Both the position numbers and the translations under genes were made by a program. The notes under the pieces are model-generated. The model had not been told where the DNA came from. It made no database searches and worked only from the letters and a program-made list of their open reading frames with translations. From a virus (taxonomy: Duplodnaviria; Heunggongvirae; Uroviricota; Caudoviricetes), in IMG/VR virus record IMGVR_UViG_3300025018_003790: a stretch of 64,000 bases of DNA; one strand, 5' to 3'. Shown piece by piece: positions 18,228 to 57,610 of this stretch (position 1 is the stretch's first letter; each line of letters opens with the position of its first letter).

Positions 18228-18510
18228 CGATCTTCAATGCCTCCTTTTCGGTTTTTTCGGGCGGATTTTCTTATTAATCCCTTTTTTCTTCTCAATCTCT
18301 TTTTTAAGATTATCCATCAAATCCTTGACTTCATCACGTTCAGAAATACCATCCATTCTTGGAAAATTAACTTCCCAAAAAGAATAAATCTTTAGTTCTG
18401 GACTTTTTTCAAGTTTTAAACAAAAAGATGCAGCATCCTCTATCCTAACGAAAAGATGTTCATCTAATTTCCAGAATCTTTCATCTTCAGGATCTTCAAT
18501 TTCTGAATGT

Positions 18511-18768
18511 TCAATTAATAATGATAGCATTATTAATTTCTAGTTTTTCTAGTTTTTCTAGTTTTTCTAGTTTTTCTAGTTTTTCTAGTTTTTCTAGTTT
18601 TTCTTGAAGCGCTGAAACAATATCTTCATGCAATATCTTCGAGCCTCTCCTTAAACACCAATCAATCCTTGCAGCATGGGATGGTTTTAATTCTTCTTCG
18701 GCTAAAACCTCTTCTGAAATATCTTTAACCAAATTATATAATAAATTTGGCAATGAACAGTTTCCCAT
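18511..18768 (-). CDS. small protein with (EKL)n repeat
   Basis: ORF track; contains an in-frame 9-bp tandem repeat encoding EKLEKLEKL... Confidence 0.4.
   Translation of the reverse strand: MGNCSLPNLLYNLVKDISEEVLAEEELKPSHAARIDWCLRRGSKILHEDIVSALQEKLEKLEKLEKLEKLEKLEKLEINNAIIIN
18538..18603. repeat. perfect tandem repeat, 9-bp unit TAGTTTTTC x7
   Basis: Directly visible at 18541-18603; multiple of 3, so copy-number change keeps the frame. Confidence 0.85.
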
Positions 18769-19683: not shown

Positions 19684-21087
19684 ACCGTTCCTTAAAATCT
19701 GCGGAAATCTAAGCATTTGACAATGCTCCAAATATTCGCAAACCTACTGGTTTAAAACCGGCACCGTAAGGTCCGGTAAAGAATCGATTCAAAATATTCC
19801 TCCCTGCATTTGTATCTGCGTTGCCTTTATGACCACAGCCAAGGCACAGGAATATCTCTCCATTCCGATTCTTCTTATCAGCATGACCACATTCAAGGCA
19901 AGTGATACTGGTATTATAACAGGGAACAGAACGGAAGGAAACACGGTTTTCTTCACATCCCATTTGAACCCGATTCAACCAATATCGCCACACCCACGAG
20001 CCGATAACTCGACGCATATTTTTGGAAAGGCGTCGTCTTTCCTTTGTCTTGTGATTCAAGTTTGACAACTTTTCAACAACCACAAGATCAATCTTTTCAT
20101 TAGAAACTATTTGTTTTGCAACCTCATCCATTCGTTGTTTCAATGCCCTTCTGGCTCGCTTTTGTCCTTTAGAGCCATGTTCACAACGAACTATTCTCTG
20201 CACACATTCTTTTATGTCTCTGCCCAACTGCTCACCGTTAGAAAAAGAAGCCAAGGCGTTGATGCCAGAGTCAATTCCGATAGCATTTTTGCCTTCCTTC
20301 TTCTCTCCTGTTTGAATCTCAAAGCAGAACTGGACATCTTTGTCTGTTATGATGTAGCTATTCAATCTCTGTCCCAAATTGTTCCATTTGTTAAAATGCT
20401 TGTGATATCTGATTGGCAAGTCAATGATAGTCTTTTCCCCAATAGAAGACAGATGTAGCCAACCATCGAATTCGTTTGTCTTAGATGGCTGAATATCAGC
20501 GATAGTGCAAGAGACATACATCCGATTGCCCTTATGCTTTGGCTTTTCTGCTGTCAATGCTTCTGCCTTCTGCTTCAACTGATTAGCTTTGTTGGAATAC
20601 TTCGCCTTTTCGGCTTTAGCTAACAATCGCTTCTTATCATTGGCTATTCGCTCTTGCGAGGCTTTAATCATATCTATTGCTTCACGAGCACAGACTTTTC
20701 TAAGTCTCGCTGATAGCCAAGACTCTGGTTTATTGACTATATCCTTTAGCAATTCTGCTTTGGTTGGGCAATCATCCCAGAAAGAATCAATGAACAGATT
20801 GCAAAGTCTACCATATTCAGTCAGCACAGTTTTAAGTTGCTCACGCTTGGTAGCGGTAGCGAATTTCAAAGAACACTGTGTTGACCGAATTATCTTCATT
20901 TTTCTGTCTTCGCCTCTGCTTCTTTAGCTTCCGCTTCTTTCTATTTTCACTACTTCTTTTGCCGTATATTTTGTTGGAAAATGACGCCATTAGAGAAGCC
21001 GGGTTTGCGAATGCTCACATGTTTCCCTTTCGTTTCCCGCAGTTATCCATAGATTTTCGCAGATTTAGTGCCAACTGTTATTAACCC
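19684..21087 (-). mobile_element. IS607-family element, internally deleted copy (tnpB only, with a tnpA 3' remnant)
   Basis: Right end ACCGTTCCTTAAAATCTGCGGAAATCTAAGCATTTGACAATGCTCCAAAT and left end ATCCATAGATTT(T/C)CGCAGATTTAGTGCCAACTGTTAT are shared with the copy at 47616..51623. Sequence 20900-20990 is homologous to the 3' end of tnpA in the other copy. Confidence 0.7.
19709..20899 (-). CDS. tnpB: TnpB (OrfB) RNA-guided endonuclease, IS607/IS605 family
   Basis: RuvC-I IGIDSGIN, RuvC-II VVVEKL, zinc finger CLECGH...CLGCGH, RuvC-III NADTNAGRNI; about 88% identical to the 47641..48831 copy, with the C-terminal half near-identical. Confidence 0.85.
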   Translation of the reverse strand: MKIIRSTQCSLKFATATKREQLKTVLTEYGRLCNLFIDSFWDDCPTKAELLKDIVNKPESWLSARLRKVCAREAIDMIKASQERIANDKKRLLAKAEKAKYSNKANQLKQKAEALTAEKPKHKGNRMYVSCTIADIQPSKTNEFDGWLHLSSIGEKTIIDLPIRYHKHFNKWNNLGQRLNSYIITDKDVQFCFEIQTGEKKEGKNAIGIDSGINALASFSNGEQLGRDIKECVQRIVRCEHGSKGQKRARRALKQRMDEVAKQIVSNEKIDLVVVEKLSNLNHKTKERRRLSKNMRRVIGSWVWRYWLNRVQMGCEENRVSFRSVPCYNTSITCLECGHADKKNRNGEIFLCLGCGHKGNADTNAGRNILNRFFTGPYGAGFKPVGLRIFGALSNA

Positions 21088-21350: not shown

Positions 21351-21384
21351 GGAAAAAACAAACGGCCGGTGGACTCCGGCCGTT
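21351..21384 (-). terminator. rho-independent terminator
   Basis: Minus-strand AACGGCCGG-agtcca-CCGGCCGTT (9-bp GC stem) followed by TGTTTTTTCC. Confidence 0.55.
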
Positions 21385-21583
21385 CGTGGTTCTTTATTAA
21401 CTTGGTCGTCCCAGCACACAATTACATTCTGACCATTCTTGGGGACGGGTCCTTTTACAGCTATAGCCGAAGTTGCGGCCTCTGATTTCGTCTTCAGGAC
21501 GCTTTTATTCCCATAAAAGTAAGGATGCATATTTTTGTGATTTACATATGCGTCTATAACCAATTTGGTTTTTTGCTGTTAAT

Positions 21584-22654
21584 TCAATTATATGTAACAA
21601 TTTCTAAATCTTCTCCGTTAATTTCTTTTTTAATTCTTTCTATCGCTATTTCACTTATTTTTACAAATTTTCCATCTGTCTTTTTAATCTTTTCATTAGA
21701 TTGGATACCTATGAATCGAAGATCGTTTTTGTGCCTTGAACAAGCTATCGCAGTTGAAGCTGTCCCCGCAAAAAAATCTAGAACAACGTCGCCATCATCT
21801 GTAAATATATCTAGAATTTTCAACAACAACCCAATTGGTTTTGGGGATTCAAAAGCACGAACATCACCTATTTCTTTTTGAAGATTTTGAGTTGCAGAGT
21901 GATAATGCCCAACCTCTTTCCAACTCCAAACTGTGCTTGGTGGGACCTCAAAAGTTTTGCTAAAATATTGTTTAACATAAACCTCCCAATGATTATTCTT
22001 TTTCACCCATTCAAGGAATTCTTTTTCTTTTTCAACTTTTTTCTTTGACCATCTCCAATGACCTTGGGTGCCATCAGGTTTGATGGGCCAAACCTCCGAC
22101 CCATCAGGTGAAGTCAAAGGGTAGAAAAGAGTTGGGGCATTTTCTTTTAAAGAACCTTTCCCTTCTTTTCTTAATGATCGTCGTCGATATTTCCCTTTTA
22201 AATCTTCGTGATTAAATCTATTTGTATAATTTTCATCAGCTTGTCTAATTTCTTTGTTTATTTTTGAATTTTTACTTCTTTTATAAACTAATAAATATTC
22301 ATGATCTTTTGAAAAGAACGAGCAATTCATTTTGGGGCTATAATTTCTATGCCAAACTAATGTCGCTACAAAATTACTTTCTCCGAAAATTTTATCCATC
22401 ATCAATTTCAAGTTGTAAATTTCATTATCATCAATAGATAAACAAATAAACCCATTGTTTTGAAGAATTCTAAAAGATTCTTTTAGGCAAGGATAAATCA
22501 TTTCTTTCCATTGTTGATGTGTTTTAGAATCTTCATAACTCAAAGAGTTTTTTGTATTGTAAGGCAAATCAGAATAAATTAATTTAACAGATTTATCATC
22601 AATTCTTTTTAATGCTATTTTATTATCAGATTCTATAAATAAAAATTTTATCAA
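21584..22654 (-). CDS. beta-class DNA amino-methyltransferase (N6-adenine or N4-cytosine), apparently orphan
   Basis: Motif IV LIYSDLPYN (DPPY-like) near the N-terminus and motif I VLDFFAGTASTAIA near the C-terminus; no adjacent restriction endonuclease candidate. Confidence 0.8.
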   Translation of the reverse strand: MIKFLFIESDNKIALKRIDDKSVKLIYSDLPYNTKNSLSYEDSKTHQQWKEMIYPCLKESFRILQNNGFICLSIDDNEIYNLKLMMDKIFGESNFVATLVWHRNYSPKMNCSFFSKDHEYLLVYKRSKNSKINKEIRQADENYTNRFNHEDLKGKYRRRSLRKEGKGSLKENAPTLFYPLTSPDGSEVWPIKPDGTQGHWRWSKKKVEKEKEFLEWVKKNNHWEVYVKQYFSKTFEVPPSTVWSWKEVGHYHSATQNLQKEIGDVRAFESPKPIGLLLKILDIFTDDGDVVLDFFAGTASTAIACSRHKNDLRFIGIQSNEKIKKTDGKFVKISEIAIERIKKEINGEDLEIVTYN

Positions 22655-29586: not shown

Positions 29587-30072
29587 CTAAAACAAACTCC
29601 CAGAATCATCAGCCTCAAGTTTTGTCCTTGCTTTCTCGTCTTTCTGATCTTTGGTTAAAATTTCGCCATAACATTCAGAAACTGTTGAAACCAAATCTAA
29701 AATCTTTCCAAGTTGTGTCTTTTTTCCACTCGTAACTATTTTATAGCACTTCCCAATTTGAATTTTATCAGCAGAAGCCAATGTCAAAGGATAAACCTCA
29801 ATTGATGAAGCAGATGGGATCGGGATGATATCCCCATCTTCATCAACGCTTACAGGGGATCCTCTAACCGTTAGATATTCATCAGAAATTTCTGTTTGGG
29901 AGATGATTAAGATAGTAGAAATTTCAAATGGTTTTGTTTTAGATTCATATGTAGATTTTAAGAAAAAAGGTGTTATAATTGATGCAAACATAGCAATTAT
30001 TGAAATAACAACTAACAACTCAACTAGACTAAATCCTCTTCGTTTCCTGATCATTTCGGTCCTCTCTCTCAT
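29587..30072 (-). CDS. type IV pilin / pseudopilin-like protein
   Basis: N-terminus KRRGFSLVELLVVISIIAMFASI = prepilin leader, G|F(S)LxE cleavage/methylation motif with Glu at +5, then a hydrophobic helix. Confidence 0.5.
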   Translation of the reverse strand: MRERTEMIRKRRGFSLVELLVVISIIAMFASIITPFFLKSTYESKTKPFEISTILIISQTEISDEYLTVRGSPVSVDEDGDIIPIPSASSIEVYPLTLASADKIQIGKCYKIVTSGKKTQLGKILDLVSTVSECYGEILTKDQKDEKARTKLEADDSGSLF

Positions 30073-30076
30073 GCTT

Positions 30077-32020
30077 TCAGATAGTTTTTAGTCTTTCTAG
30101 TTCATCAAGTTTTAAGAAATAGAACCCGAAAACAGTAGGATACTGCAAGGTTCTTTCTGTGTCAAGATCAATATCTTCCAAATGAGTTCCCTGTGGTTTT
30201 TGAACCCACTTATGAATGTTGCCAAAGAATCTAATAAAAAATTTTTTCACCCAATCAACGATTTGGTTGTGTAAATAATCTTCAAATTTTTCAAAGAGGA
30301 TCAATGCTATTTCATATGGTGATTTCCCATGAGTTACCAATAATTCATAACAAGAGTCTAAAACTTCAAATGGCATTAATTCTCTTTCATCTTCTTGGTT
30401 TTCTGCAAGTTCCGCAGAAGCAACAGTTTTGTAGATCAATCTAGCAAGAACAATCGCAAGTTGTGCGCTCTGTTCGTCGTTTTGATTTGCAAGTGCTTTT
30501 AGATAAAAATACTCCAAAATTTTGTTAATCTTTGTTTTTCGGCAACCAGAGATTGGGGCAAAATCTCCTTGCATATCACCAAGTTTTGTCGCATACCCAA
30601 CGGCTGTTTCCGACATATTGCTTGTGCAGAGCACAAGCCCTCGACAAATATTTGAAAGATTGGCAATTTTTGTTGCACGGATTCTCGCTTGTATATTTTG
30701 ATCTGCAATTCTGTAATCCGCCTCTCCAAAACCAAGCCCTTCATTCAATTTACGCAAATCTACTGATTCTCTTTGAAACGGTTCAGCAATTGATTGTTCG
30801 TAAAAATTAAGACCAAGTGTTTCACATAAATCCTTTGAAATATTTCTGGTAGCATCAGAGTTATAAGATGTTGGGAAAGAGACACAGGTAACAACATCGT
30901 GAGGATTCAAATTATTTCTGATTGCCCATTCATAAGCTAAAATTGCAACCAAGACAGAATCTCGGCCACCAGAAATAGAGATTAACATCCTATCAAAAGT
31001 ACCAACTTTTCTGAAATAATCACCCATTCCCATAATAATTGCATTAATTATTTCTTCGATTTCATCAAAAACTACAACTTTTTCTTGTTTTTTAATTCTT
31101 GATCGATCAATGTTTATTCCCTGTGGAATTTTGACTGTATAAATAGAAGGAATTAACTTTTCTCTTTCAATAAAATCTTCTGCTTGACTTTTCCAGGTTG
31201 TATCTCTTGCCCTTGATGCCCAGACTTCATCAAAATCAACATCTTGGATAACAATTCCTGGTTGGAATCGTTCCAATTCAGCTAAACATTCACCCTCTTG
31301 AATAATATAGCCACCACCATCAAATGAAAGTTCTCCGTTCCCACCAACTTGATATGCTGCTAGAAGAATCGAATGATCATCAATTGATCTTTGTCTCAAC
31401 ATCATTTTTCGATTGTTTTCGACTCCTGATCTAAAAGGCGATGCGTTCAAAATAGCATGAACAACTGCGCCTTCATAACCATGGTGCCTCATTGGCCCAT
31501 CTGGCACCCAAGAGGTTTCACAAATTTCACAAGAAAAAATGAAGGAACCATTAATTTCAAAAAGGAGATCGCCAAAATCTGGATTCTCTAAACCAAAACC
31601 AATTTTTGTTAAATCAAATTGTTTGCCTTCTGTGGTTGTTCTTTTTTCATAAAAAATACCATAGTTCGGAAGATGTTGTTTGGGGGTGATACCGACAACT
31701 TTACCTTTATGAATCACAAAAGCACAATTAAAAATTCCACGACTCGGGATCGGCAGGAATCCACCAATCACAAAAATTGTATCTAGATACATTGTAGCTT
31801 CACAAAATCTATAAATTTCTTCTATTTCTCGGTGAAAGAAAAATGGCAACAAAAGAAAATCGCTACAAGGATAACCTGTTACACAACCTTCTGCATAAAC
31901 CAATAGATTACAACCAAGATCATTTGCATGAGAAGCATAAGGAAGCATTAAATCTACATTGTTCTTAAAATCACCAACTTTAGGATTCATGGAGACAACA
32001 CCGAGACGTGCTTTTGACAT
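30077..32020 (-). CDS. nadE: glutamine-dependent NAD+ synthetase
   Basis: N-terminal CN-hydrolase (nitrilase) domain, C-terminal NAD synthetase domain with PP-loop ISISGGRDSVLVAI (SGGxDS); 647 aa. Confidence 0.8.
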   Translation of the reverse strand: MSKARLGVVSMNPKVGDFKNNVDLMLPYASHANDLGCNLLVYAEGCVTGYPCSDFLLLPFFFHREIEEIYRFCEATMYLDTIFVIGGFLPIPSRGIFNCAFVIHKGKVVGITPKQHLPNYGIFYEKRTTTEGKQFDLTKIGFGLENPDFGDLLFEINGSFIFSCEICETSWVPDGPMRHHGYEGAVVHAILNASPFRSGVENNRKMMLRQRSIDDHSILLAAYQVGGNGELSFDGGGYIIQEGECLAELERFQPGIVIQDVDFDEVWASRARDTTWKSQAEDFIEREKLIPSIYTVKIPQGINIDRSRIKKQEKVVVFDEIEEIINAIIMGMGDYFRKVGTFDRMLISISGGRDSVLVAILAYEWAIRNNLNPHDVVTCVSFPTSYNSDATRNISKDLCETLGLNFYEQSIAEPFQRESVDLRKLNEGLGFGEADYRIADQNIQARIRATKIANLSNICRGLVLCTSNMSETAVGYATKLGDMQGDFAPISGCRKTKINKILEYFYLKALANQNDEQSAQLAIVLARLIYKTVASAELAENQEDERELMPFEVLDSCYELLVTHGKSPYEIALILFEKFEDYLHNQIVDWVKKFFIRFFGNIHKWVQKPQGTHLEDIDLDTERTLQYPTVFGFYFLKLDELERLKTI

Positions 32021-32051
32021 CGCAGTTCCCTTTCGACACAGGCCCTTGGGT

Positions 32052-32696
32052 TTAGATTAACAATTCATCAAAAAGTTCTGTATCGAGATTAGTTAAGCAA
32101 TTGACTTCAAATTTTGAAAGTTGTTTGCCGTTGATCCACCAACTTTTATTGCCATCAGCTAATTCAATAGCAGGCCCATCAAGGCGGTGAAGCTGGCCAT
32201 TTTGCAACCAAGATTTTGAACCATTGGCAAATTCAATTGCTGGGCCATCAAGGCGATGAAGTTTGCCGTTGAGCCACCATTCTTTTGTTCCGTCAAACCT
32301 TTCAATAGCTGGCCCATCAAGGCGATGAGATTTGCCATTCAATCTCCATTCTTTTGATCCGTCGGCATTTTCAATTGCTGGCCCATCAAGGCGGTGAGGC
32401 TGGCCATTTTGCCACCATTCTTTTGATCCATCGGCAAATTCCTTTGCTGGCCCATCAAGACGATGAGGTTTGCCGTTGATGAACCATTCTTTTACCCCAT
32501 TGGGCCAATCAACAGCAGGCCCATTAAGGCGATGAAGTTTGCCGTTGATGTACCAATGTTCTACTCCCTCGGGTGTTTGATATGCTGGCCCATCTTCTCG
32601 GTGAAGTTGGCCATTTAAAGTCCAAGTTTTTACGCCATTATTCTCGATCCTTAATTTTGGATTTTTTTTCATAGTTAACCTCAATTCATCAATCAA
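32052..32696 (-). CDS. MORN-repeat (variant) protein
   Basis: About eight tandem units of the WxNGKxHRLDGPAxE..DGSKEW form. Confidence 0.7.
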   Translation of the reverse strand: MIDELRLTMKKNPKLRIENNGVKTWTLNGQLHREDGPAYQTPEGVEHWYINGKLHRLNGPAVDWPNGVKEWFINGKPHRLDGPAKEFADGSKEWWQNGQPHRLDGPAIENADGSKEWRLNGKSHRLDGPAIERFDGTKEWWLNGKLHRLDGPAIEFANGSKSWLQNGQLHRLDGPAIELADGNKSWWINGKQLSKFEVNCLTNLDTELFDELLI

Positions 32697-33952
32697 TAAA
32701 TAGTTTCTTCAAAGAATTCGGTTGAATTATCCCAAACACGTTGATACCTTTCGACTTCACTCTTGGGGCCTTGTGCTTTCGCAAGATTGTTGCTAATTTT
32801 AACTGTTGAAACAGGTTCGTTGATCATCAAAGAACTTATCACTTCAACTGCTTTAACAATAATTGACAAAGGATCCGCACCAAGATCATTCGAGCAATTT
32901 GTACCAATCCCGAATTTAACACCAATCCTTCCACTGAAAGCTTCAAATAGTTTTTTAGCAAGTGGGGGATTTAATCCATCACTGAAAAAGATGACTTTTT
33001 TGAGTGGGTCAATACCTTGCGATTGATAGAAAGAAATAACCCTTTTACCGAACTTGAAGGGGTCGCCAGAATCATGCCTAATCCCTTTGTAAAAACCAGA
33101 AAGAAATCCAGCAAAATCAGCAAAAAATGCATCATCACCAAATGTATCCCCCAAAGCTATTGATAATGGTTTCCCATAAAAAAGTTTCCAATTTCTAAGG
33201 ACAAATCTTTGTGATTTCCTCAAAGATTCATCCCCACCAATTGCCCCCATTATTGCAGCTATAACCATATACAATTCGTGGGCTTGAGTCCCGCCTGGAA
33301 TTTGTACGTGTTTCATAGCTAAATTAATATTTGATGTCCCTAAACAAGAAGGACAATTCTCAACAAAATCCTCATAACATTCTTCTTGCCATTCAGGACT
33401 AAAAGCCCGCCTTGTCCCAAATTCTACCCACTCAAAACCAGGAATAGAATTGAATAATTCAATTTTTTCTTTTCTGCGGCGGCGGCCTTCTTTTTTAAGT
33501 TCTTCCATTTGATTTGGATATTTATACCGATAATAAAGAGCATTGATTATTGACATAATAAAGGTCTCTGAATAACTGGATCTAGCCCAATAATCTTGAG
33601 AGTCGATCAAAAATTGTCCATCCCGAATGTCAACATTGATTTTAGGCATTTGATAATTTTTTAAGAATTCAAAATAATCAGAAAAATCTTCTTTCTTATA
33701 CCCAACCCTGAATGAATCAGCAATGAATCCAATTTCGTTTGCAGAAAACCTTAATGATCTGCAATGATCTAATTCTTCTCTAACTGCTTCAATTGGAATA
33801 ACTTCAGCTAATTTATTGTCTTTTTTTCTATTGTTGAAAGCAAATCTAACAATAGGGTCTGGGAATCTTTCTTCAATGAAAGCCTGCATGGCAATTTTAT
33901 ACCAATCTGTATGCAAAAGAGTTTTGATAATTGGTTCTGGGTTTGTTAGCAT
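32693..33952 (-). CDS. pncB: nicotinate phosphoribosyltransferase-like enzyme (NAPRTase/NAMPT superfamily)
   Basis: N-terminal LLHTDWYKIAMQ matches the PncB signature LLDTDAYKLHMQ; real start probably the internal ATG at 33950-33952, preceded by GAGGAGGAAAG SD. Confidence 0.65.
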   Translation of the reverse strand: MLTNPEPIIKTLLHTDWYKIAMQAFIEERFPDPIVRFAFNNRKKDNKLAEVIPIEAVREELDHCRSLRFSANEIGFIADSFRVGYKKEDFSDYFEFLKNYQMPKINVDIRDGQFLIDSQDYWARSSYSETFIMSIINALYYRYKYPNQMEELKKEGRRRRKEKIELFNSIPGFEWVEFGTRRAFSPEWQEECYEDFVENCPSCLGTSNINLAMKHVQIPGGTQAHELYMVIAAIMGAIGGDESLRKSQRFVLRNWKLFYGKPLSIALGDTFGDDAFFADFAGFLSGFYKGIRHDSGDPFKFGKRVISFYQSQGIDPLKKVIFFSDGLNPPLAKKLFEAFSGRIGVKFGIGTNCSNDLGADPLSIIVKAVEVISSLMINEPVSTVKISNNLAKAQGPKSEVERYQRVWDNSTEFFEETIY

Positions 33953-33990
33953 CTCTGCTTTCCTCCTCGCCCTCTTCCCCGTTTGTAGCA

Positions 33991-34025
33991 AAGCCCTGCG
34001 GCGCTGTGAGAGCGCCGCAGGGCTT
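33991..34025 (-). promoter_or_regulatory. 15-bp perfect GC-rich hairpin between the vWA and pncB genes
   Basis: AAGCCCTGCGGCGCT-gtgag-AGCGCCGCAGGGCTT; no U-tract, so not a canonical terminator. Confidence 0.5.
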
Positions 34026-45680: not shown

Positions 45681-45746
45681 ATTGGAAAGCAACACACAGG
45701 CAAAATTGCTTTGCCTGTGTGTTGCTTTCCAATTCTTTTCAGTCTC

Positions 45747-46658
45747 TTATTTTTCTGCTTTTTTCGACTTGCTGCTGGTTTCTTCTGCGGCCGGAAGATT
45801 GAGAATCATCCCGTTCCCAGAGCCAACGACCAAGGGTTGTGCCCCATCCCAAGCATCAATCGTAAGATACTTCAAAAGACTTGGAGTCAAAGATTCGTTG
45901 ATAATTCTATTCGATTCTGCTTGTGCTCGGGCGATTTCCAGCTTCGATTCGGCCTCGCCCTTTGCTTTCGCAATTGCCTGATCAGCTTGTGCCTTAATCT
46001 CCTTGACCTTTTGCTCCGCTTTACTGGCCTCCTGGCTGGCTTCGATCACAGCGTTGATCGAGTTTACAACCCTTTCGTCAGGCCGAGGAGCGGTCATAAA
46101 GCTAACGTTGTTGAAAATAAATCCACTTGGGCCAAGTTCCGATTCCAAATATTCCTTAACTTCATCAAGCAATGCACCCTTCTTTTCACCGAAAATTTCA
46201 ATCGCTGAATACTTCGAGGCACAACGATTGAATCCATCCCTGACTCTGTCACGGACAGTGTTGTCAGAAAGTTCTTCAATCGTCGTCCAACGATATTTGC
46301 TGTAAATATCAGGGGCTTTTGCCGGATCAATTTGATATTCAATACTCACATCAGCATTGAAATTTGCACCTTCGCTGGACGAAAAATCGAAAGAATCATC
46401 GTTCTTGCTACCCTCTGTGGGGTTTTTCGTCCATTTCTCTGATTGACGATAAATTGGGAAAACAATAATTTCTGTTGTGGGCATGAAATAGAAATGGTAT
46501 CCAACGCCCAACGGAGTCGGGTGGACGCCAGCAGAGCTACCTGTTTTTTTGACTTCAACCCCGACATGTTGCGGTGGGACCTTCGCACACCCCGAAGCAA
46601 AAATTGACACAAAAATCATAATCGAAACTGCCACTGCGGTTCTTTTGGAGAACATCAT
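45747..46658 (-). CDS. SPFH/Band-7 (prohibitin-like) lipoprotein
   Basis: Lipobox IFASGC after a signal helix; SPFH core followed by an Ala/Glu/Lys-rich coiled coil (EASKAEQKVKEIKAQADQAIAKAKGEAESKLEIARAQAE). Confidence 0.7.
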   Translation of the reverse strand: MMFSKRTAVAVSIMIFVSIFASGCAKVPPQHVGVEVKKTGSSAGVHPTPLGVGYHFYFMPTTEIIVFPIYRQSEKWTKNPTEGSKNDDSFDFSSSEGANFNADVSIEYQIDPAKAPDIYSKYRWTTIEELSDNTVRDRVRDGFNRCASKYSAIEIFGEKKGALLDEVKEYLESELGPSGFIFNNVSFMTAPRPDERVVNSINAVIEASQEASKAEQKVKEIKAQADQAIAKAKGEAESKLEIARAQAESNRIINESLTPSLLKYLTIDAWDGAQPLVVGSGNGMILNLPAAEETSSKSKKAEK

Positions 46659-46951
46659 TCACCTTCTTTCGGTTCGGTTGCCGCTTTGATTTCAGCAGGA
46701 GGTTGTTCGGCTTCAACGGTTGGTTTCCAAATTCCAGCGATTTTATTAACACCAATAAGCACAAGGATCAAATCTATACCGAGGACAAGGATCCCATTAA
46801 TTACATATAAATCATTTCTTTTGTTCAAGAGAAAAATTCCAATAATTGCAATAATTGAGACAGCAATTAACCCTAAAATTGAATAGAAAATTGTTTTCGA
46901 AATTTTCATCAGCATCTCGTCACTCATCATCGCTTTCTGTCCTTTCCCCAA
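46655..46951 (-). CDS. small integral membrane protein, SPFH partner
   Basis: Two TM helices; 4-nt overlap with the SPFH gene. Confidence 0.5.
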   Translation of the reverse strand: MGKGQKAMMSDEMLMKISKTIFYSILGLIAVSIIAIIGIFLLNKRNDLYVINGILVLGIDLILVLIGVNKIAGIWKPTVEAEQPPAEIKAATEPKEGE

Positions 46952-47005
46952 ACAAAAAAACGAGAGGCTGAACCAACCAGGGCCATTGGTCGATTCAGCC
47001 TCTCG
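46951..47005 (-). terminator. strong rho-independent terminator
   Basis: CGAGAGGCTGAA-(19 nt loop)-TTCAGCCTCTCG perfect 12-bp stem followed on the minus strand by TTTTTTTGTTTGG. Confidence 0.6.
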
Positions 47006-47289
47006 TATCTTGCTTTTTGGCGCTTGTTAGCACCTTTTCGGCCAACCCAAGCCGGTTCCATAATCCGCAAGAGATCATGGCTCATTGTGCCACCCAGGCC
47101 GAAATGGAGATCACCGATTGCCGGTTTCTTCGAAATGATCATCAACAGCTTTTCAGCCGGATAGGCCCATTTCGACTTCACCAAGAATCTCCCTCACAAA
47201 TCGGCTTACCTTTTTGTGGCACCTTCCACGATACCTCGAACCGGAGAGGCGGATGGTCCTCTCCGGCCCGAGGCACTCTGCGTCAACAC
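46951..47289 (-). ncRNA. candidate structured ncRNA (about 335 nt, GC-rich, promoter-to-terminator unit)
   Basis: Sigma70-type promoter TTGACA-N16-TATACT (47296-47323, minus) upstream, intrinsic terminator downstream; about 55% GC with many perfect stems (e.g. CCGGAGAGG/CCTCTCCGG). The only ORF (TTG start) runs through the terminator hairpin. Confidence 0.35.
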
Positions 47290-47295
47290 ACCTAG

Positions 47296-47323
47296 AGTAT
47301 ATCACCCCAGCGACCAGTGTCAA
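47296..47323 (-). promoter_or_regulatory. sigma70-like promoter TTGACA-N16-TATACT
   Basis: Exact -35 and near-consensus -10 read on the minus strand. Confidence 0.5.
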
Positions 47324-47640
47324 ACTAGGTGGCCTCTGGAAGAAATTCTATCTTTTCTAATAAATCGTTATTGGGAAGCCACTCATCAAACCAATTAAGA
47401 TATTCATCTAATCGTTCTTTTGAAAGATTCAATCTCATACCATGATCACGATCAAGAGAGATTAAGCAACATAACAATTTTTCTAAAAAATCTATGGAAA
47501 TAGACAACCACCATTTTCTACCGAATGAAGAAAAAAGAATCGAGCCGCTGCTGGCCCTATAAAAATAACCACATTGAGTAGGATAATCTTCTCCAATCGG
47601 GACAAAAAGAATCAAACCGTTCCTTAAAATCTGCGGAAAT

Positions 47641-48831
47641 CTAAGCATTTGACAATGCTCCAAATATCCGCAAACTCACTGGTTTGAAACCGGCACCGTA
47701 AGGTCCGGTGAAAAATCGATTCAAAATATTCCTCCCTGCATTTGTATCTGCGTTGCCTTTATGACCACAACCAAGGCACAGGAATATCTCTCCATTCCGA
47801 TTCTTCTTATCAGCATGACCACATTCAGGGCAAGTGATACTGGTATTATAACACGGAACGGTTCGGAAGGAAACACGGTTTTCTTCACACCCCATTTGAA
47901 CCCGGTTCAACCAATATCGCCACACCCACGAGCCAATAACTCGACGCATATTTTTGGAAAGGCGTCGTCTTTCCTTTGTCTTGTGATTCAAATTGCTAAG
48001 CTTCTCCACAACCACAAGATCAATCTTTTCATTAGAAACTATTTGCTTCGCAACCTCATCCATTTGTTGCTTCAATGCCCTTCTGGCTCGCTTTTGTCCT
48101 TTAGAACCATGTTGGCAACGATTGATGCGATTAACGCAACCTTTTATATCTCTGCCCAACTGCTCGCCGTTGGAAAAAGAAGCTAAAGCATTGATACCAG
48201 AATCAATCCCTATGGCATTTTTGCCTTGCTTCTTTTCACCAGTTTCAATTTCAAAGCAAAATTGAACAGAATCTTTTGTTATGATATAGGAATTAAGTCT
48301 TTTTCCCAAGTTGTCCCATTTATTGAAATGCTTATGGAAACGAATTGGCAGGTTCATCACGATCTTATTTCCTATTGAAGCTAGATGAAGCCAAGCATCG
48401 AATTCATTAGTTTTAGACATTTGAAGATCAGCAATAGTGCAACTGACATTCATTCTATTGCCTTTGTGCTTTGGCTTCACGGCTATCAATGACTCTGCTT
48501 TCTGTCTCAATTGGTTCGCCTTTGTTGCGCTTTTAGCTTTTTCTGCTTTGGCAAGAAGCCTCTTCTTTTCGTTGTTGGTTTTTTCTTGGGAAGCCTTGAT
48601 CATGTCAATTGCTTCTCTGGCACAAACCTTTCTAAGTCTAGCTGAAAGCCAAGAATCAGGAGCGTTCACGATGTCTTTTAACAATTCTGCTTTGGTTGGG
48701 CATTGCTCCCAGAAGGAATCGATGAACAGGTTGCAAACTCTTCCGTATTCGGTCAACACAGCACCAAGCTCCAGCCTCTTTGCGGAGGTTGAAAACTTGA
48801 GGCTGCACTGTGCTGACCGAATAATTTTCAT
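47641..48831 (-). CDS. tnpB: TnpB (OrfB) RNA-guided endonuclease
   Basis: Same RuvC-I/II/III and zinc-finger motifs as 19709..20899. Confidence 0.85.
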   Translation of the reverse strand: MKIIRSAQCSLKFSTSAKRLELGAVLTEYGRVCNLFIDSFWEQCPTKAELLKDIVNAPDSWLSARLRKVCAREAIDMIKASQEKTNNEKKRLLAKAEKAKSATKANQLRQKAESLIAVKPKHKGNRMNVSCTIADLQMSKTNEFDAWLHLASIGNKIVMNLPIRFHKHFNKWDNLGKRLNSYIITKDSVQFCFEIETGEKKQGKNAIGIDSGINALASFSNGEQLGRDIKGCVNRINRCQHGSKGQKRARRALKQQMDEVAKQIVSNEKIDLVVVEKLSNLNHKTKERRRLSKNMRRVIGSWVWRYWLNRVQMGCEENRVSFRTVPCYNTSITCPECGHADKKNRNGEIFLCLGCGHKGNADTNAGRNILNRFFTGPYGAGFKPVSLRIFGALSNA

Positions 48832-48832
48832 A

Positions 48833-49120
48833 TCAGTGGACCATCCCTTGCGTATCTATGGTAATTTTCTTTTCTCTCACACTATCTAATATAATAGGAT
48901 ATGGCCTTGATTCAGTAAAAACCTCTTCTCCAATAAGACCGGCTGTATATTCTCCAGATTCCAATGCTAATTGTTTATCATCTTTAACCCACCAATCCAT
49001 TACTTGCTGTTCTTCACCTTCACCAGAAGAAGCAACCTCTGATAATTCGAATTCTATATTCAATTCATAGTCATGTCCATCAATGTTTAGTTTGTGTTCA
49101 GTTTCATATTTAGTTGTCAT
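48833..49120 (-). CDS. small acidic protein (95 aa) inside the IS element
   Basis: ORF track; pI clearly acidic (EFELSEVASSGEGEEQQVMDWW...); 1-nt gap to the tnpB start. Confidence 0.45.
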   Translation of the reverse strand: MTTKYETEHKLNIDGHDYELNIEFELSEVASSGEGEEQQVMDWWVKDDKQLALESGEYTAGLIGEEVFTESRPYPIILDSVREKKITIDTQGMVH

Positions 49121-49132
49121 AATTTTTCTCCT

Positions 49133-50650
49133 TTACAGGTACATAACAGTTTTCTTGAGCTTGCCTAGTTCAATAACATTCTCTATAGGTTCGAACCAAA
49201 AATACTTTCCCTCCCAATCCGGCTGCCTTTGAATAAGTGAATTCCAACTATCAATGTGATTTGAATTTGGGCCGTCACAAAAAGTAAGTCTTTCTTTTCC
49301 AGCGAAGGCGCTTTCTCTCGGATTCCTATCCAATAGGGCCTTTGCCCTATCAATCCCCTTTTCACCAGATACCGTATTCGTAGCAACGCTCTTCTTTATT
49401 ATTTCCTCTGGAATATCCTCATACTTATCAAACACAATCATCTTGTATTGTCTTTTAATTTTGCTTTGAGAATTCCATCTCCCACCAGGGATTATGGTGA
49501 ATTCTCCATCAAAGAATCCGATGATATTATCCACCAATTTAGTGCTTGAGATATAAATCGGGAACACGTCGTCTTGTTTCCTGTGTCCTGATTTACAAGG
49601 AAAGCCTAAATATCTACCGATGGACTGATATAAAGAATCATCGGTTTTATAAGCATCAATATGCATACGAATATGCATAGTCTCATTTAGTGTCTTTCCT
49701 GCTCTCATTGCGCCTTTGATTATAATAATAGAAGGCTTTTTGGGTTGCTCTGATAAAGCACCATCTAACTGACTAATTTCGTAATCTCCATCAATAGAGT
49801 ATTCCCTAAACCAAATATTGGGATAGTTTTGCCCCAAATATCTTTCTATAACGAAGGGGGCTTGCCCCTGTGTCCTAATCACAAGATGACCGTTTCCATT
49901 CTTGTTGCAAAGACCAATGAATTCGTCTAGTCTTTCTTTAAAGAATGGAGTGACACAAGACTTCCTATCATCGGCCACTTTTGTTTCATGAACGACTACA
50001 AATCTCCCATCATTCTTTGCGTCTTCGATTGAATAATAATTATCACTCAATTCCAATTGGATACAAGAAAATGAATTCTCTCTTATTTTTGACTGAAGGA
50101 CAGATGCAAATGGGGTAGCTGACAGAGAAAGAACATAGTTATGACCATTATTCCAATCAGAAATAGGCATACCATATTCTATGCCCAATTTATCAAACAG
50201 CACATTAAGTGGACGACTATTGCCTAGAGCCTGATGGCATTCGTCAAGGAAGATTAGCCTTCTATCTACCGTTAGATCTATTTTATCGGGGATCGCATAT
50301 TCTGCCCCGCTTTTCTTAGTAAAATCTGCGAGATGGAAAACTTTAACCCGACAAGAAGCATTAGGCTCGTAGATACCAGCGTTCTGTAACCTTCGTTGCT
50401 GTTGTATTTTGAGTTCATTATCGGAAATATGAAGGATAAACAATATTTCGTAAGTTAGTCCTTCTTTCTCCCATTCATCTTTCATCATTTTAGCGACAAA
50501 GGTAGCCACTCCAGTTTTCCCCTGTTGGGTTTGAGCAATTAGCAATGGCGGGCCTTCATGCTTGGCAAATTCTTCTATAACCTCTTCTCCTGCTTTAATT
50601 TGTTCATAGTAAATAACTTCATCTCCAATTTTCATTTCAGATAGGCTCAT
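49133..50650 (-). CDS. SF2 helicase-like ATPase (DExH type)
   Basis: Motif I AQTQQGKTGVA, motif II FLDECHQAL, motif III SATP, motif VI-like QSIGRYLG; start overlaps the tnpA stop by 14 nt. Confidence 0.55.
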   Translation of the reverse strand: MSLSEMKIGDEVIYYEQIKAGEEVIEEFAKHEGPPLLIAQTQQGKTGVATFVAKMMKDEWEKEGLTYEILFILHISDNELKIQQQRRLQNAGIYEPNASCRVKVFHLADFTKKSGAEYAIPDKIDLTVDRRLIFLDECHQALGNSRPLNVLFDKLGIEYGMPISDWNNGHNYVLSLSATPFASVLQSKIRENSFSCIQLELSDNYYSIEDAKNDGRFVVVHETKVADDRKSCVTPFFKERLDEFIGLCNKNGNGHLVIRTQGQAPFVIERYLGQNYPNIWFREYSIDGDYEISQLDGALSEQPKKPSIIIIKGAMRAGKTLNETMHIRMHIDAYKTDDSLYQSIGRYLGFPCKSGHRKQDDVFPIYISSTKLVDNIIGFFDGEFTIIPGGRWNSQSKIKRQYKMIVFDKYEDIPEEIIKKSVATNTVSGEKGIDRAKALLDRNPRESAFAGKERLTFCDGPNSNHIDSWNSLIQRQPDWEGKYFWFEPIENVIELGKLKKTVMYL

Positions 50651-51287
50651 TGTTTTCTTCCTTTTCTTTTTCAGCTTTACGCTTTTTCCTATTATCAGCA
50701 GACCGTTTTCCGTAAATTTTATTTGAAAAAGATGCCATCAGCGAAAGAATGTCTTCCACTAACTCTTCTTCATAACTCTTTCCAAGTATTTCTTCAACCC
50801 ATTCAATCTCGACACCGTGGCTTCGGAAGAATTTCACAAGAAACTCAAACATAAATCGGCACAACCGATCACGATGTTCAATGATAACCTTGTCAATCTC
50901 ACCTTCTTCAGCCAGTTTGAGAAGCCGGTTCAATTTTGGGCGATCATCCGACATTCCAGAAGCAACCTCTTCAAAAGTTGCCACGACGAAATATTTTTTA
51001 TCAACACAATATTTTGACAATCTTCCCGATTGTCTCCCTAAGTCGCCTTTTGTTTTTTGTTCTTGCGATGATACTCTAGCATATACCGCTACTCTGATAG
51101 TATCTCTAGTTTTCTCTGCCTCTTCGCCAATAAAAGCCTGAATATCTGATATTTTGTATCGCCTGTGACCACCGGGGGTTTTCATCGGGACAAGAGTTCC
51201 TGACTTGTCCCATTGGCGCAAGGTATCTATATTGACTCCAAGGATTTGTGAGGCTTCTCCTATGCTAACTAACTTCTGTTGCGCCAT
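50637..51287 (-). CDS. tnpA: IS607-type TnpA serine recombinase with N-terminal MerR-like HTH
   Basis: HTH LVSIGEASQILGVNIDTLRQWDKSG; resolvase catalytic block IRVAVYARVSSQEQ...GDLGRQ; 216 aa. Confidence 0.8.
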   Translation of the reverse strand: MAQQKLVSIGEASQILGVNIDTLRQWDKSGTLVPMKTPGGHRRYKISDIQAFIGEEAEKTRDTIRVAVYARVSSQEQKTKGDLGRQSGRLSKYCVDKKYFVVATFEEVASGMSDDRPKLNRLLKLAEEGEIDKVIIEHRDRLCRFMFEFLVKFFRSHGVEIEWVEEILGKSYEEELVEDILSLMASFSNKIYGKRSADNRKKRKAEKEKEENNEPI

Positions 51288-53931: not shown

Positions 53932-54029
53932 TAACCGGGGAGCACCTCACCCCACTGTGTAACAGGCGCATCGCCCAACTCATGCATGGGGGAGTTTCCC
54001 CTCGGCCCGATCTGGTGCCTGCCCGTGGC

Positions 54030-54150
54030 GGGGCTGAGACAACCCCAGCCCCGCCACGGAGGCTCAACAGGTATGGTAGACCAACCCGGCCGCCAAGTCA
54101 ACAACGAGCCCTCGGGCTCGTTGGGTGTCTTTATTATACCACGAGTTTTT
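54030..54150 (-). promoter_or_regulatory. GC-rich leader with tandem promoters and two perfect hairpins upstream of tRNA-Glu
   Basis: Minus strand: CGTGGTATAAT, hairpin AACGAGCCC-gag-GGCTCGTT, TTGACT-N17-TACCAT, then 12-bp perfect stem GTGGCGGGGCTG/CAGCCCCGCCAC, then about 95 nt to the tRNA. Confidence 0.45.
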
Positions 54151-57525: not shown

Positions 57526-57610
57526 CGGAAGGGGTGAGACTCGAACTCACAAGGGCTTTGCCACCCCACTTGTTTTCGAAACAAACTCCTGATCCAGCCG
57601 GATCCCTTCC
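57526..57610 (-). tRNA. tRNA-Ser(CGA), type II
   Basis: 85 nt: acceptor GGAAGGG/CCCTTCC perfect, anticodon arm TTTGT-TTCGAAA-ACAAG, long variable arm, T-arm GTGAG-TTCGAGT-CTCAC, discriminator G. Confidence 0.8.

Follow-up and report, generated by a model that had tools for sequence, protein, structure and literature searches.

A translated-leader candidate: a promoter-to-terminator unit whose reading frame runs through its own terminator in a phage genome

The window, i.e., the whole stretch of phage DNA that was analysed (64,000 nucleotides), is identical to a 114-kb metagenomic contig (ENA ERZ27293386) with genes of phage type: NAD-salvage genes, HNH endonucleases, five tRNAs, and a PHROG-200 SPFH protein. 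At the locus described here, the features follow one another on the minus strand. Read 5′ to 3′, they are the stop codon of a 107-aa ORF, a promoter, about 335 nt, a stem-loop with a run of seven Ts, a gap of 23 nt, and the ATG of a gene for a 91-aa protein (Table 1). An SPFH/Band_7 gene comes next and is the last gene of the unit. The hairpin between convergent genes that lies beyond it is probably a bidirectional terminator closing the unit. A TnpB gene is located on the opposite side and is listed for context only.

Table 1. Features of the promoter-to-terminator unit and its surroundings, with positions in the window
Feature	Position	Strand	Details
TnpB gene (47641-48831) and right end, context only	47617..48831	-	PF07282; four-copy homology stops at 47617
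Sigma-70-type promoter	47296..47323	-	11/12 matches and TG extended -10
-35 box TTGACA	47323-47318	-	Spacer of 16 nt to the -10
-10 box TATACT	47301-47296	-	TG extended
5′-proximal 19-bp GC-rich hairpin GCCUCGGGCCGGAGAGG...CCUCUCCGGUUCGAGGU	47231..47276	-	Predicted fold and inverted repeat; without U-tract
Long irregular hairpin domain	47087..47222	-	Single-sequence prediction; GUGCCAC/GUGGCAC closing, GAAA-capped tip
Shine-Dalgarno-like GAGGGAG	47189..47195	-	7 nt before GTG 47181, 4 nt before TTG 47184
84/85-codon ORF (GTG 47181 or TTG 47184), ORF84	46927..47184	-	Basic, pI 11
9-bp hairpin CCAUGAUCU-CUUGC-GGAUUAUGG	47058..47080	-	Predicted; GGAACCGGCUUGG motif immediately after
Intrinsic terminator	46953..47006	-	20-bp stem, 7-nt loop (47006-46960), U7 (46959-46953)
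91-aa two-helix membrane protein gene	46655..46930	-	Codon score 0.35; RBS GGGGAAAGGA immediately after the U-tract
SPFH/Band_7 (prohibitin-like) gene, last of the unit	45747..46655	-	PF01145 E = 3.5e-22; phrog_200 E = 4e-68
20-bp perfect hairpin between convergent genes	45684..45730	.	Inverted repeat

An earlier note on this DNA had described a discrete promoter-to-terminator unit with an unusually structured RNA on the transcribed strand, and this description is supported by the promoter and terminator calls together with the folding. The flagged stretch is a real, well-delimited transcription unit in the phage genome. Its proposed minus-strand promoter, TTGACA-16-TATACT, was borne out with 11 of 12 matches plus a TG extended -10, and transcription would start near position 47289. 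No other site within the 64 kb combines 11/12 matches with the TG, and within the phage's promoter class a consensus -35 is found only here. The GC enrichment was also confirmed, although not with the figures first given (55% against 32%): we computed 52.3% for positions 46951-47323 against 35.1% for the window, and the sequence of about 335 nt between promoter and terminator has 52-54%. As for the motifs, the CCGGAGAGG/CCTCTCCGG stem is present as the arms of the 19-bp hairpin (47276-47231) and both segments singled out, GGTAAGCCG and ATGGAACCGGCTTGG, occur in the sequence, whereas the CCCC blocks are absent.

At the 3′ end of the unit, the earlier description of a perfect hairpin followed by a T-run held, but the stem had been underestimated at 12 bp and has 20 perfect base pairs. 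The predicted free energy of this hairpin is -35 kcal/mol. Only two canonical intrinsic terminators were found on the minus strand of the 64-kb window, and the one of the unit is the stronger. We searched the folds for an RNA-only antiterminator and found none: forbidding the terminator (3′ arm) cost 31 kcal/mol, and no substitute helix for the 5′ arm appeared. The best antiterminator candidate was a pairing with the 3′ arm of the 5′ hairpin, complementary at 9 of 10 positions. Thus, the folds of the unit did not contain the mutually exclusive antiterminator that defines a riboswitch or another RNA-switch attenuator. With no RNA-only switch against a hairpin of this strength, read-through requires a factor acting in trans, e.g., a ribosome.

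Downstream of the terminator, the 91-aa gene starts so close to the U-tract that there is no space for a promoter, and no further promoter with at least 9/12 matches was detected inside the unit or between the terminator and the start of that gene. Since neither the 91-aa gene nor the SPFH gene has a promoter of its own, their transcription must pass through the terminator. Both present gene-like codon usage and family matches (Pfam, PHROG). Homologues of the SPFH protein were found in 784 phage records, with identities of 35% or less. The closest Band_7/SPFH operons (46% and 42% identity) showed no leader like that of the unit, and the three phage SPFH loci inspected showed no comparable one. 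As related SPFH operons lack it, the leader arrangement is not conserved with the operon.

The earlier note reported a basic 85-aa ORF with a TTG start as the only ORF of the unit, reading through the terminator. The read-through was confirmed, but two other ORFs are present: one of 56 aa on the same strand, and one of 92 aa on the plus strand that is a codon-aligned shadow ORF. The U7 tract sits 24 nt ahead of the stop codon of ORF84, a TGA joined to the start of the 91-aa gene in the overlap ATGA (46930-46927); of about 19 gene pairs in the neighbourhood, 3 have such an ATGA overlap. The gene callers of JGI and ENA called ORF84 as an 84-aa gene in seven contigs. When first-order Markov sequences were generated with matching composition, 12% had an open frame of 84 codons or more, and 1.7% combined such a frame with a Shine-Dalgarno (SD) sequence and terminator read-through, a chance figure that leaves out the ATGA overlap.

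The composition of ORF84 is not that of its neighbours. Its composition-corrected codon score was -0.11, whereas the 19 called genes around it all score 0.04-0.37; among random open frames, 10.8% matched or exceeded the score of ORF84. The GC3 was 0.53, compared with 0.16-0.45 in the tabulated real genes. Searches of about 15 billion proteins, covering 1.84 billion representatives and 5.8 billion clusters, gave no homologue, and Pfam, PHROGs, and PADLOC gave no match. The AlphaFold2 single-sequence model was of low confidence and uninformative (pLDDT 51). ORF84 also showed no similarity to the small ORFs that precede the SPFH genes of other phages, which mostly encode hydrophobic membrane proteins, whereas its own product would be hydrophilic, with a pI of 11. 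Codon usage unlike that of a gene, together with no homologue, fits selection for translation rather than for the product.

Regarding the RNA, the whole unit folded with a z-score of -8.4, and none of 100 shuffled sequences was equally stable. The middle part of about 220 nt, taken without the two long hairpins, reached z = -3.57 on the minus strand vs. -0.88 on the plus strand. This is about the 1st percentile among 88 windows of the same size from the genome, where 3-4 coding windows nearly match it. The 5′-proximal 19-bp hairpin would act as a 5′ stabiliser. In the long irregular hairpin domain, nucleotides 47105-47125 are predicted to pair with the SD and the start codon of ORF84. Along the growing transcript, the predicted mean unpaired probability of the SD-to-start region is 0.59 as long as at most 153 nt have been made and drops to 0.25 from 198 nt on; for the SD core alone, the predicted change is only from about 0.6 to about 0.4. 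Because the predicted fold leaves the SD and start largely paired in the terminated RNA, translation of this stop-less molecule would be limited.

To place these features in their genomic setting, the other promoters and leaders of the phage are informative. The window contains about 20 GC-rich islands, many of which are promoter and leader regions of minus-strand genes. The promoter class sTTG-TGGTATAAT / GGGTATACT has about 11 coding-strand members in the window, that of the unit included. Behind each of the other class promoters that we read comes a GC-rich leader, and in many of these leaders a 5′ hairpin is visible by eye. An SD and a start codon, mostly ATG, come within about 35-85 nt, except at one promoter, which has a 200-nt GC-rich leader and a tRNA-Glu at 54141 instead. 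In the unit, the first SD and start codon come about 108 nt past the promoter, and the start is GTG or TTG. A high GC content and a 5′ hairpin recur in the promoter regions of this phage, so we regard them as its house style and not as the mark of a special RNA gene. Special to the unit are the consensus -35, the long leader, the terminator, and the ORF geometry.

We looked for relatives of the unit in several collections. No homologue of its DNA was retrieved by blastn against phage and plasmid collections, and exact/k-mer and spaced-seed scans of viral contigs gave chance matches only. A metagenome scan retrieved just an identical contig, and two scans of species-representative genomes were empty. 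Nine or more contigs from different samples were 100% identical across the unit, with no substitution. Apart from the TnpB, the phages that carry it had nothing in common with the window; two of these contigs were confirmed to match it only in the insertion sequence (IS). No related phage backbone was found, and IMG/VR contained no relative of a neighbouring 246-aa gene. Complementarity of the unit RNA to the rest of the window was at chance level (12-13 nt). The unit occurs only in a single clonal phage population, and at present it allows no generalising.

The reading that we prefer, tentatively and at somewhat less than an even chance, is that the unit is a leader whose internal terminator is suppressed when the ORF around it is translated. 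This is suggested by the arrangement of the sequence elements. The operon would have three cistrons, from the leader ORF84 to the 91-aa membrane protein and the SPFH/Band_7 protein. Host RNA polymerase would initiate at the strong promoter (47323-47296), the 5′ stabilising hairpin would form on the nascent RNA, and the SD and GTG of ORF84 would become exposed. A ribosome trailing the polymerase would then cover the 5′ arm of the terminator inside the ORF, suppressing termination, and after ending at the ATGA overlap it would pass to the next gene, so that the two membrane-protein genes would be expressed. When no ribosome is close, the polymerase would stop at the U7 and free a stable RNA of about 335 nt. 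Under this mechanism the ORF would be translated, its translation would control read-through, and the terminated RNA would be a by-product rather than a second product.

We favour the leader reading because the ribosome is the one trans factor that the sequence itself suggests. In published experiments, translating ribosomes repressed an intrinsic terminator that was located within a coding region or close to the stop codon (PMC4824070). When translation stopped 5 bp upstream of the terminator, termination efficiency dropped from about 90% to less than 10%, and when the stop codon was placed 38 bp beyond the U-tract, it dropped to about 40% of its original value (PMC4824070). Several points count against the leader reading: a leader ORF of 84 codons is long, its GTG or TTG start departs from the ATG of most leaders read, chance may still account for the ORF features (given the 12% of random sequences with an open frame of this length), the codon score is within the range of random open frames, related SPFH operons lack the arrangement, and the promoter and terminator exactly fill the intergenic space, which fits a stand-alone RNA equally well.

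Such a stand-alone non-coding RNA gene is the main rival, which we consider rather unlikely. It would produce an abundant and stable RNA of about 335 nt, of an undescribed class, with a function in trans as a regulator, a decoy, or a protein partner. The ORF would be accidental, and the downstream genes would be reached by leak-through or by a terminator-resistant polymerase. It would explain why the only consensus -35 of the class and the strongest terminator bracket the unit from stop codon to next RBS, and the strand-specific excess of folding, both in the whole unit and in its core, points the same way. The terminated transcript would have no stop codon, the GC3 and codon score of ORF84 lie outside the values of its neighbours, and the missing homologue and poor structure model are as expected for an accidental frame. 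Moreover, the same promoter class already makes a non-coding GC-rich RNA, the leader with tRNA-Glu at 54141. Against this, the unit matches no Rfam family, no homologue or variant turned up in the searched collections and hence no covariation, and its complementarity to the window does not exceed chance. The core folding is nearly equalled by a few ordinary windows, an SD, a long ORF, and the ATGA are improbable together by chance, and two real genes would be left without a usable promoter. A highly expressed RNA of a new class, made by host polymerase from the strongest pair of promoter and terminator in this part of a large phage with tRNA genes and acting in trans on the host or on the RNA metabolism of the phage itself, is likewise unlikely, and slightly more so. 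We judge it improbable, well below the stand-alone RNA, that ORF84 is a functional basic 84-aa orphan protein encoded by the first gene of the operon, its internal hairpin and U-tract being incidental or an element of mRNA stability or weak polarity. Two pipelines call the gene, the SD and the ATGA coupling fit a translated frame, the shadow ORF on the opposite strand is codon-aligned, orphan small proteins are common in phages, and small ORFs do precede SPFH genes elsewhere. But those ORFs mostly encode hydrophobic proteins, the codon score of ORF84 falls below that of all 19 neighbours, neither homologues nor the structure model speak for a conserved protein, and a terminator of this strength with its U7 stands just ahead of the stop codon.

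Two further explanations assign the unit to known RNAs, and both are very improbable. One sees in it the guide (omega) RNA of the TnpB/IS607-type element next to it, or some other RNA component of that element. The neighbouring TnpB has 396 aa and more than a thousand relatives; its closest copies are a second one in the same phage (19684-20829) and others in unrelated phage contigs. Four copies, two from this phage and two from unrelated phages, share only the sequence from the TnpB ATG to position 47617, and their flanks are unrelated. This right end of the element is 24 nt past the tnpB stop codon and 293 nt before the -35 of the unit. The earlier note placed the unit next to an IS element, which is right about adjacency but not about membership. 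The TnpB gene does adjoin the unit, and the RNA contains a 10-nt complementarity, GAAACCGGCA, to the 3′ end of tnpB, although we estimate that chance alone gives about 0.7 such 10-nt matches per 1.2 kb. The unit lies outside the right end and has its own promoter, its 3′ end is the terminator hairpin with U7 and carries no guide, it is missing downstream of the other TnpB copies, and it matches neither the HEARO nor the IS605-orfB RNA model. A TnpB omega RNA was rejected on the boundary, with the element ending at 47617 while the unit begins at 47323. An omega RNA of IscB (HEARO) found no model match either, and the neighbours of the unit are TnpB, the 91-aa membrane protein, and the SPFH protein. 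The other explanation is a degenerate or minimal RNase P RNA, or a tmRNA-like one, that serves the tRNA cluster of the phage. The earlier note had named RNase P, tmRNA, 6S, GOLLD, ROOL, and HEARO/omega as candidates for an Rfam search. In that search none of these families matched the 356 nt of the unit, neither at the gathering score nor at E<=10, and these suggestions were not upheld. At gathering scores, Rfam 15 detected only four tRNAs in the 64-kb window; at E<=10, the 1.3 kb and 356 nt searched gave only chance hairpin matches (NrrF, miRNA, and snoRNA models). The RNase P models of type A, type B, archaeal, and type T did not score on the 356 nt even at E<=10, and ARAGORN found five tRNAs and no tmRNA. 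By eye, we take the segment AGGUAAGCCG to resemble RNase P CR-I (AGGAAAGUCCGG) and GGAACCGGCUU to resemble CR-V (AGAACCCGGCUU). The two could form a P4-like pairing of 6-7 bp, in a phage with at least five tRNA genes. Yet the order of elements (hairpin, P2-like strand, CR-I-like segment) is unlike P1-P2-P3-P4, a convincing P1 is absent by eye, and the two-motif pattern retrieved a single chance match, within an ORF, from 2.9 million viral contigs. A minimal RNase-P-like ribozyme, the extreme version of the stand-alone RNA, is the least probable of all.

If the leader reading is true, the unit would be a natural phage example of a strong terminator placed in a translated leader ORF and gating membrane-protein genes. 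Translation gating of this kind has been described mainly in synthetic constructs and in a small number of bacterial operons. If the stand-alone RNA is true instead, the unit would be a new orphan phage RNA. The value of the analysis is mostly negative, as it disposes of RNase P, omega RNA, and GOLLD as identities for the unit; it also shows GC-rich structured leaders as a general trait of this phage.

Compared with known systems, the unit resembles GOLLD, ROOL, and RNase P RNA in being a GC-rich, well-folded RNA of a tRNA-carrying phage, with motifs like CR-I and CR-V. It differs from them in that no covariance model matched at any threshold, and its helix order is incompatible with RNase P. 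GOLLD and ROOL are also much longer than its RNA of about 335 nt. All that it has in common with the TnpB omega and IscB HEARO RNAs is the setting of a structured RNA close to a TnpB gene, and it is set apart from them by its place outside the element, its own promoter, the 3′ terminator, its absence at other copies, and the lack of a model match.

The lambda PR'-tR' (6S) arrangement is similar in its strong promoter, short terminated RNA, and promoterless genes directly downstream, and in a terminator too strong for an RNA switch. In lambda the block is relieved by the Q antiterminator, whereas no Q-like gene and no Q-binding or pause elements were identified for the unit, and only two genes lie downstream of it before another terminator. 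Like a phage moron, the unit stands between two phage genes with its own promoter and terminator around it. The promoter is strong and host-type, the terminator is strong, the space from stop codon to RBS is exactly filled, and the composition is unlike the backbone (52% vs. 35% GC). Unlike in a moron, the ORF inside extends beyond the terminator and does not look like a gene, and the promoter belongs to the phage's own class.

Finally, the pyrBI leader of Escherichia coli works on the same ribosome-mediated principle as the one proposed here. Both place a Rho-independent terminator ahead of the structural genes and inside a leader ORF, which follows a sigma-70 promoter. In the unit, an ORF with an RBS spans the terminator (47006-46953) and stops at 46927. 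In both, a closely following ribosome would block the hairpin, and no RNA-only antiterminator is needed. The pyrBI leader ORF has about 44 codons, compared with the 84 of the unit, which further differs in its ATGA coupling, its large structured 5′ part, and a phage setting with membrane-protein genes downstream, for which a nucleotide-sensing logic was not identified. Among these systems, the best place for the unit is, for now, with the terminator-containing leaders or the moron-like cassettes.

The minus strand of the window carries a class of extended -10 promoters, sTTG-TGGTATAAT / GGGTATACT / TGCTATAAT, each followed by a GC-rich leader that often starts with GGTG and, as judged by eye, often contains a 5' hairpin. 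These promoters together with their leaders account for most of the approximately 20 GC-rich islands of this 35% GC genome. One of the leaders lies directly before tRNA-Glu and includes, immediately upstream of the tRNA, a 14-bp hairpin (CCGUGGCGGGGCUG...CAGCCCCGCCACGG). No Rfam family matched this stretch; it could serve as an extended, structured leader of the pre-tRNA, or be some other RNA.

Features on the minus strand of the window
Feature	Position	Strand	Description
Promoter-class -10 elements	61688, 57443, 54141, 47304, 44847, 43042	minus	
Promoter-class -10 elements, rest	21325, 10581, 7072, 6257, 3168	minus	
tRNA-Glu leader	53932-54141	minus	class promoter, then ~200 nt non-coding at 63-70% GC, directly before tRNA-Glu
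tRNA-like sequence	57527-57610	minus	long variable arm, anticodon loop UUCGAAA
Well-folding 223-nt windows	about 18451-18673, 22051-22273, 29701-29923, 32401-32623	minus	
IS607-type serine-recombinase TnpA	50637-51287	minus	MerR HTH + resolvase
NAD-salvage genes	30077-33991	minus	NadE-like NAD synthetase (647 aa), nicotinamide phosphoribosyltransferase (432 aa)

The tRNA-like sequence was detected neither by ARAGORN nor by the Rfam scan at gathering level; against the tRNA-Sec model it scored 37.8 bits (E = 4.5e-6), below the gathering score of 47. Its anticodon is CGA, possibly for Ser, and the phage may thereby have an atypical tRNA as its sixth.

Folding comparable to that of the core of the promoter-to-terminator unit occurs elsewhere on the minus strand: four 223-nt windows reached z values of -3.3 to -3.8 when the genome was scanned coarsely, with 30 shuffles for each window. 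The unit's promoter has a lookalike. In an unrelated viral contig (IMGVR_UViG_3300028602_000024, 6225-6740), a nearly identical promoter, TTGACA-N14-TGATATACT-AAAGGTGTG, is followed by ~470 nt lacking a convincing gene up to the next RBS; this region folds with z = -1.8, has no Rfam match and does not resemble the unit in sequence.

If an intrinsic terminator is strictly required to have a T-run and a perfect stem of at least 8 bp, the coding strand has only two in 64 kb, at 21359-21386 (-) and 46953-47006 (-). Each is located within ~700 nt of a TnpB copy, which is probably a coincidence.

The phage contains two TnpB copies, 47617-48831 and 19684-20829 (minus), with ~84% DNA identity; their homology starts at the ATG and ends with ...TTTAAGGAACGG. 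Beyond it, the flanking sequences, TTTGATTCTTTTTGTC in the 47617-48831 copy and TATCTCAATCAAAGAC in the 19684-20829 copy, are presumed to be the respective guides. In both copies, gene callers place an ORF (107 aa and 76 aa, respectively) that begins 8 nt before the TnpB stop and continues past the end of the element into flanking DNA. Within 47641-51287 (minus), TnpA and TnpB are separated by two extra ORFs encoding a 505-aa ResIII-helicase-like and a 95-aa protein, and the related copies in two unrelated phage contigs (L001 and L006) keep only a truncated HTH remnant immediately before TnpB. The TnpA-TnpB element may be cargo-carrying or decayed.

The window also encodes NAD-salvage genes, and in Myxococcus phage Mx1 the SPFH gene likewise adjoins genes for NAD salvage.
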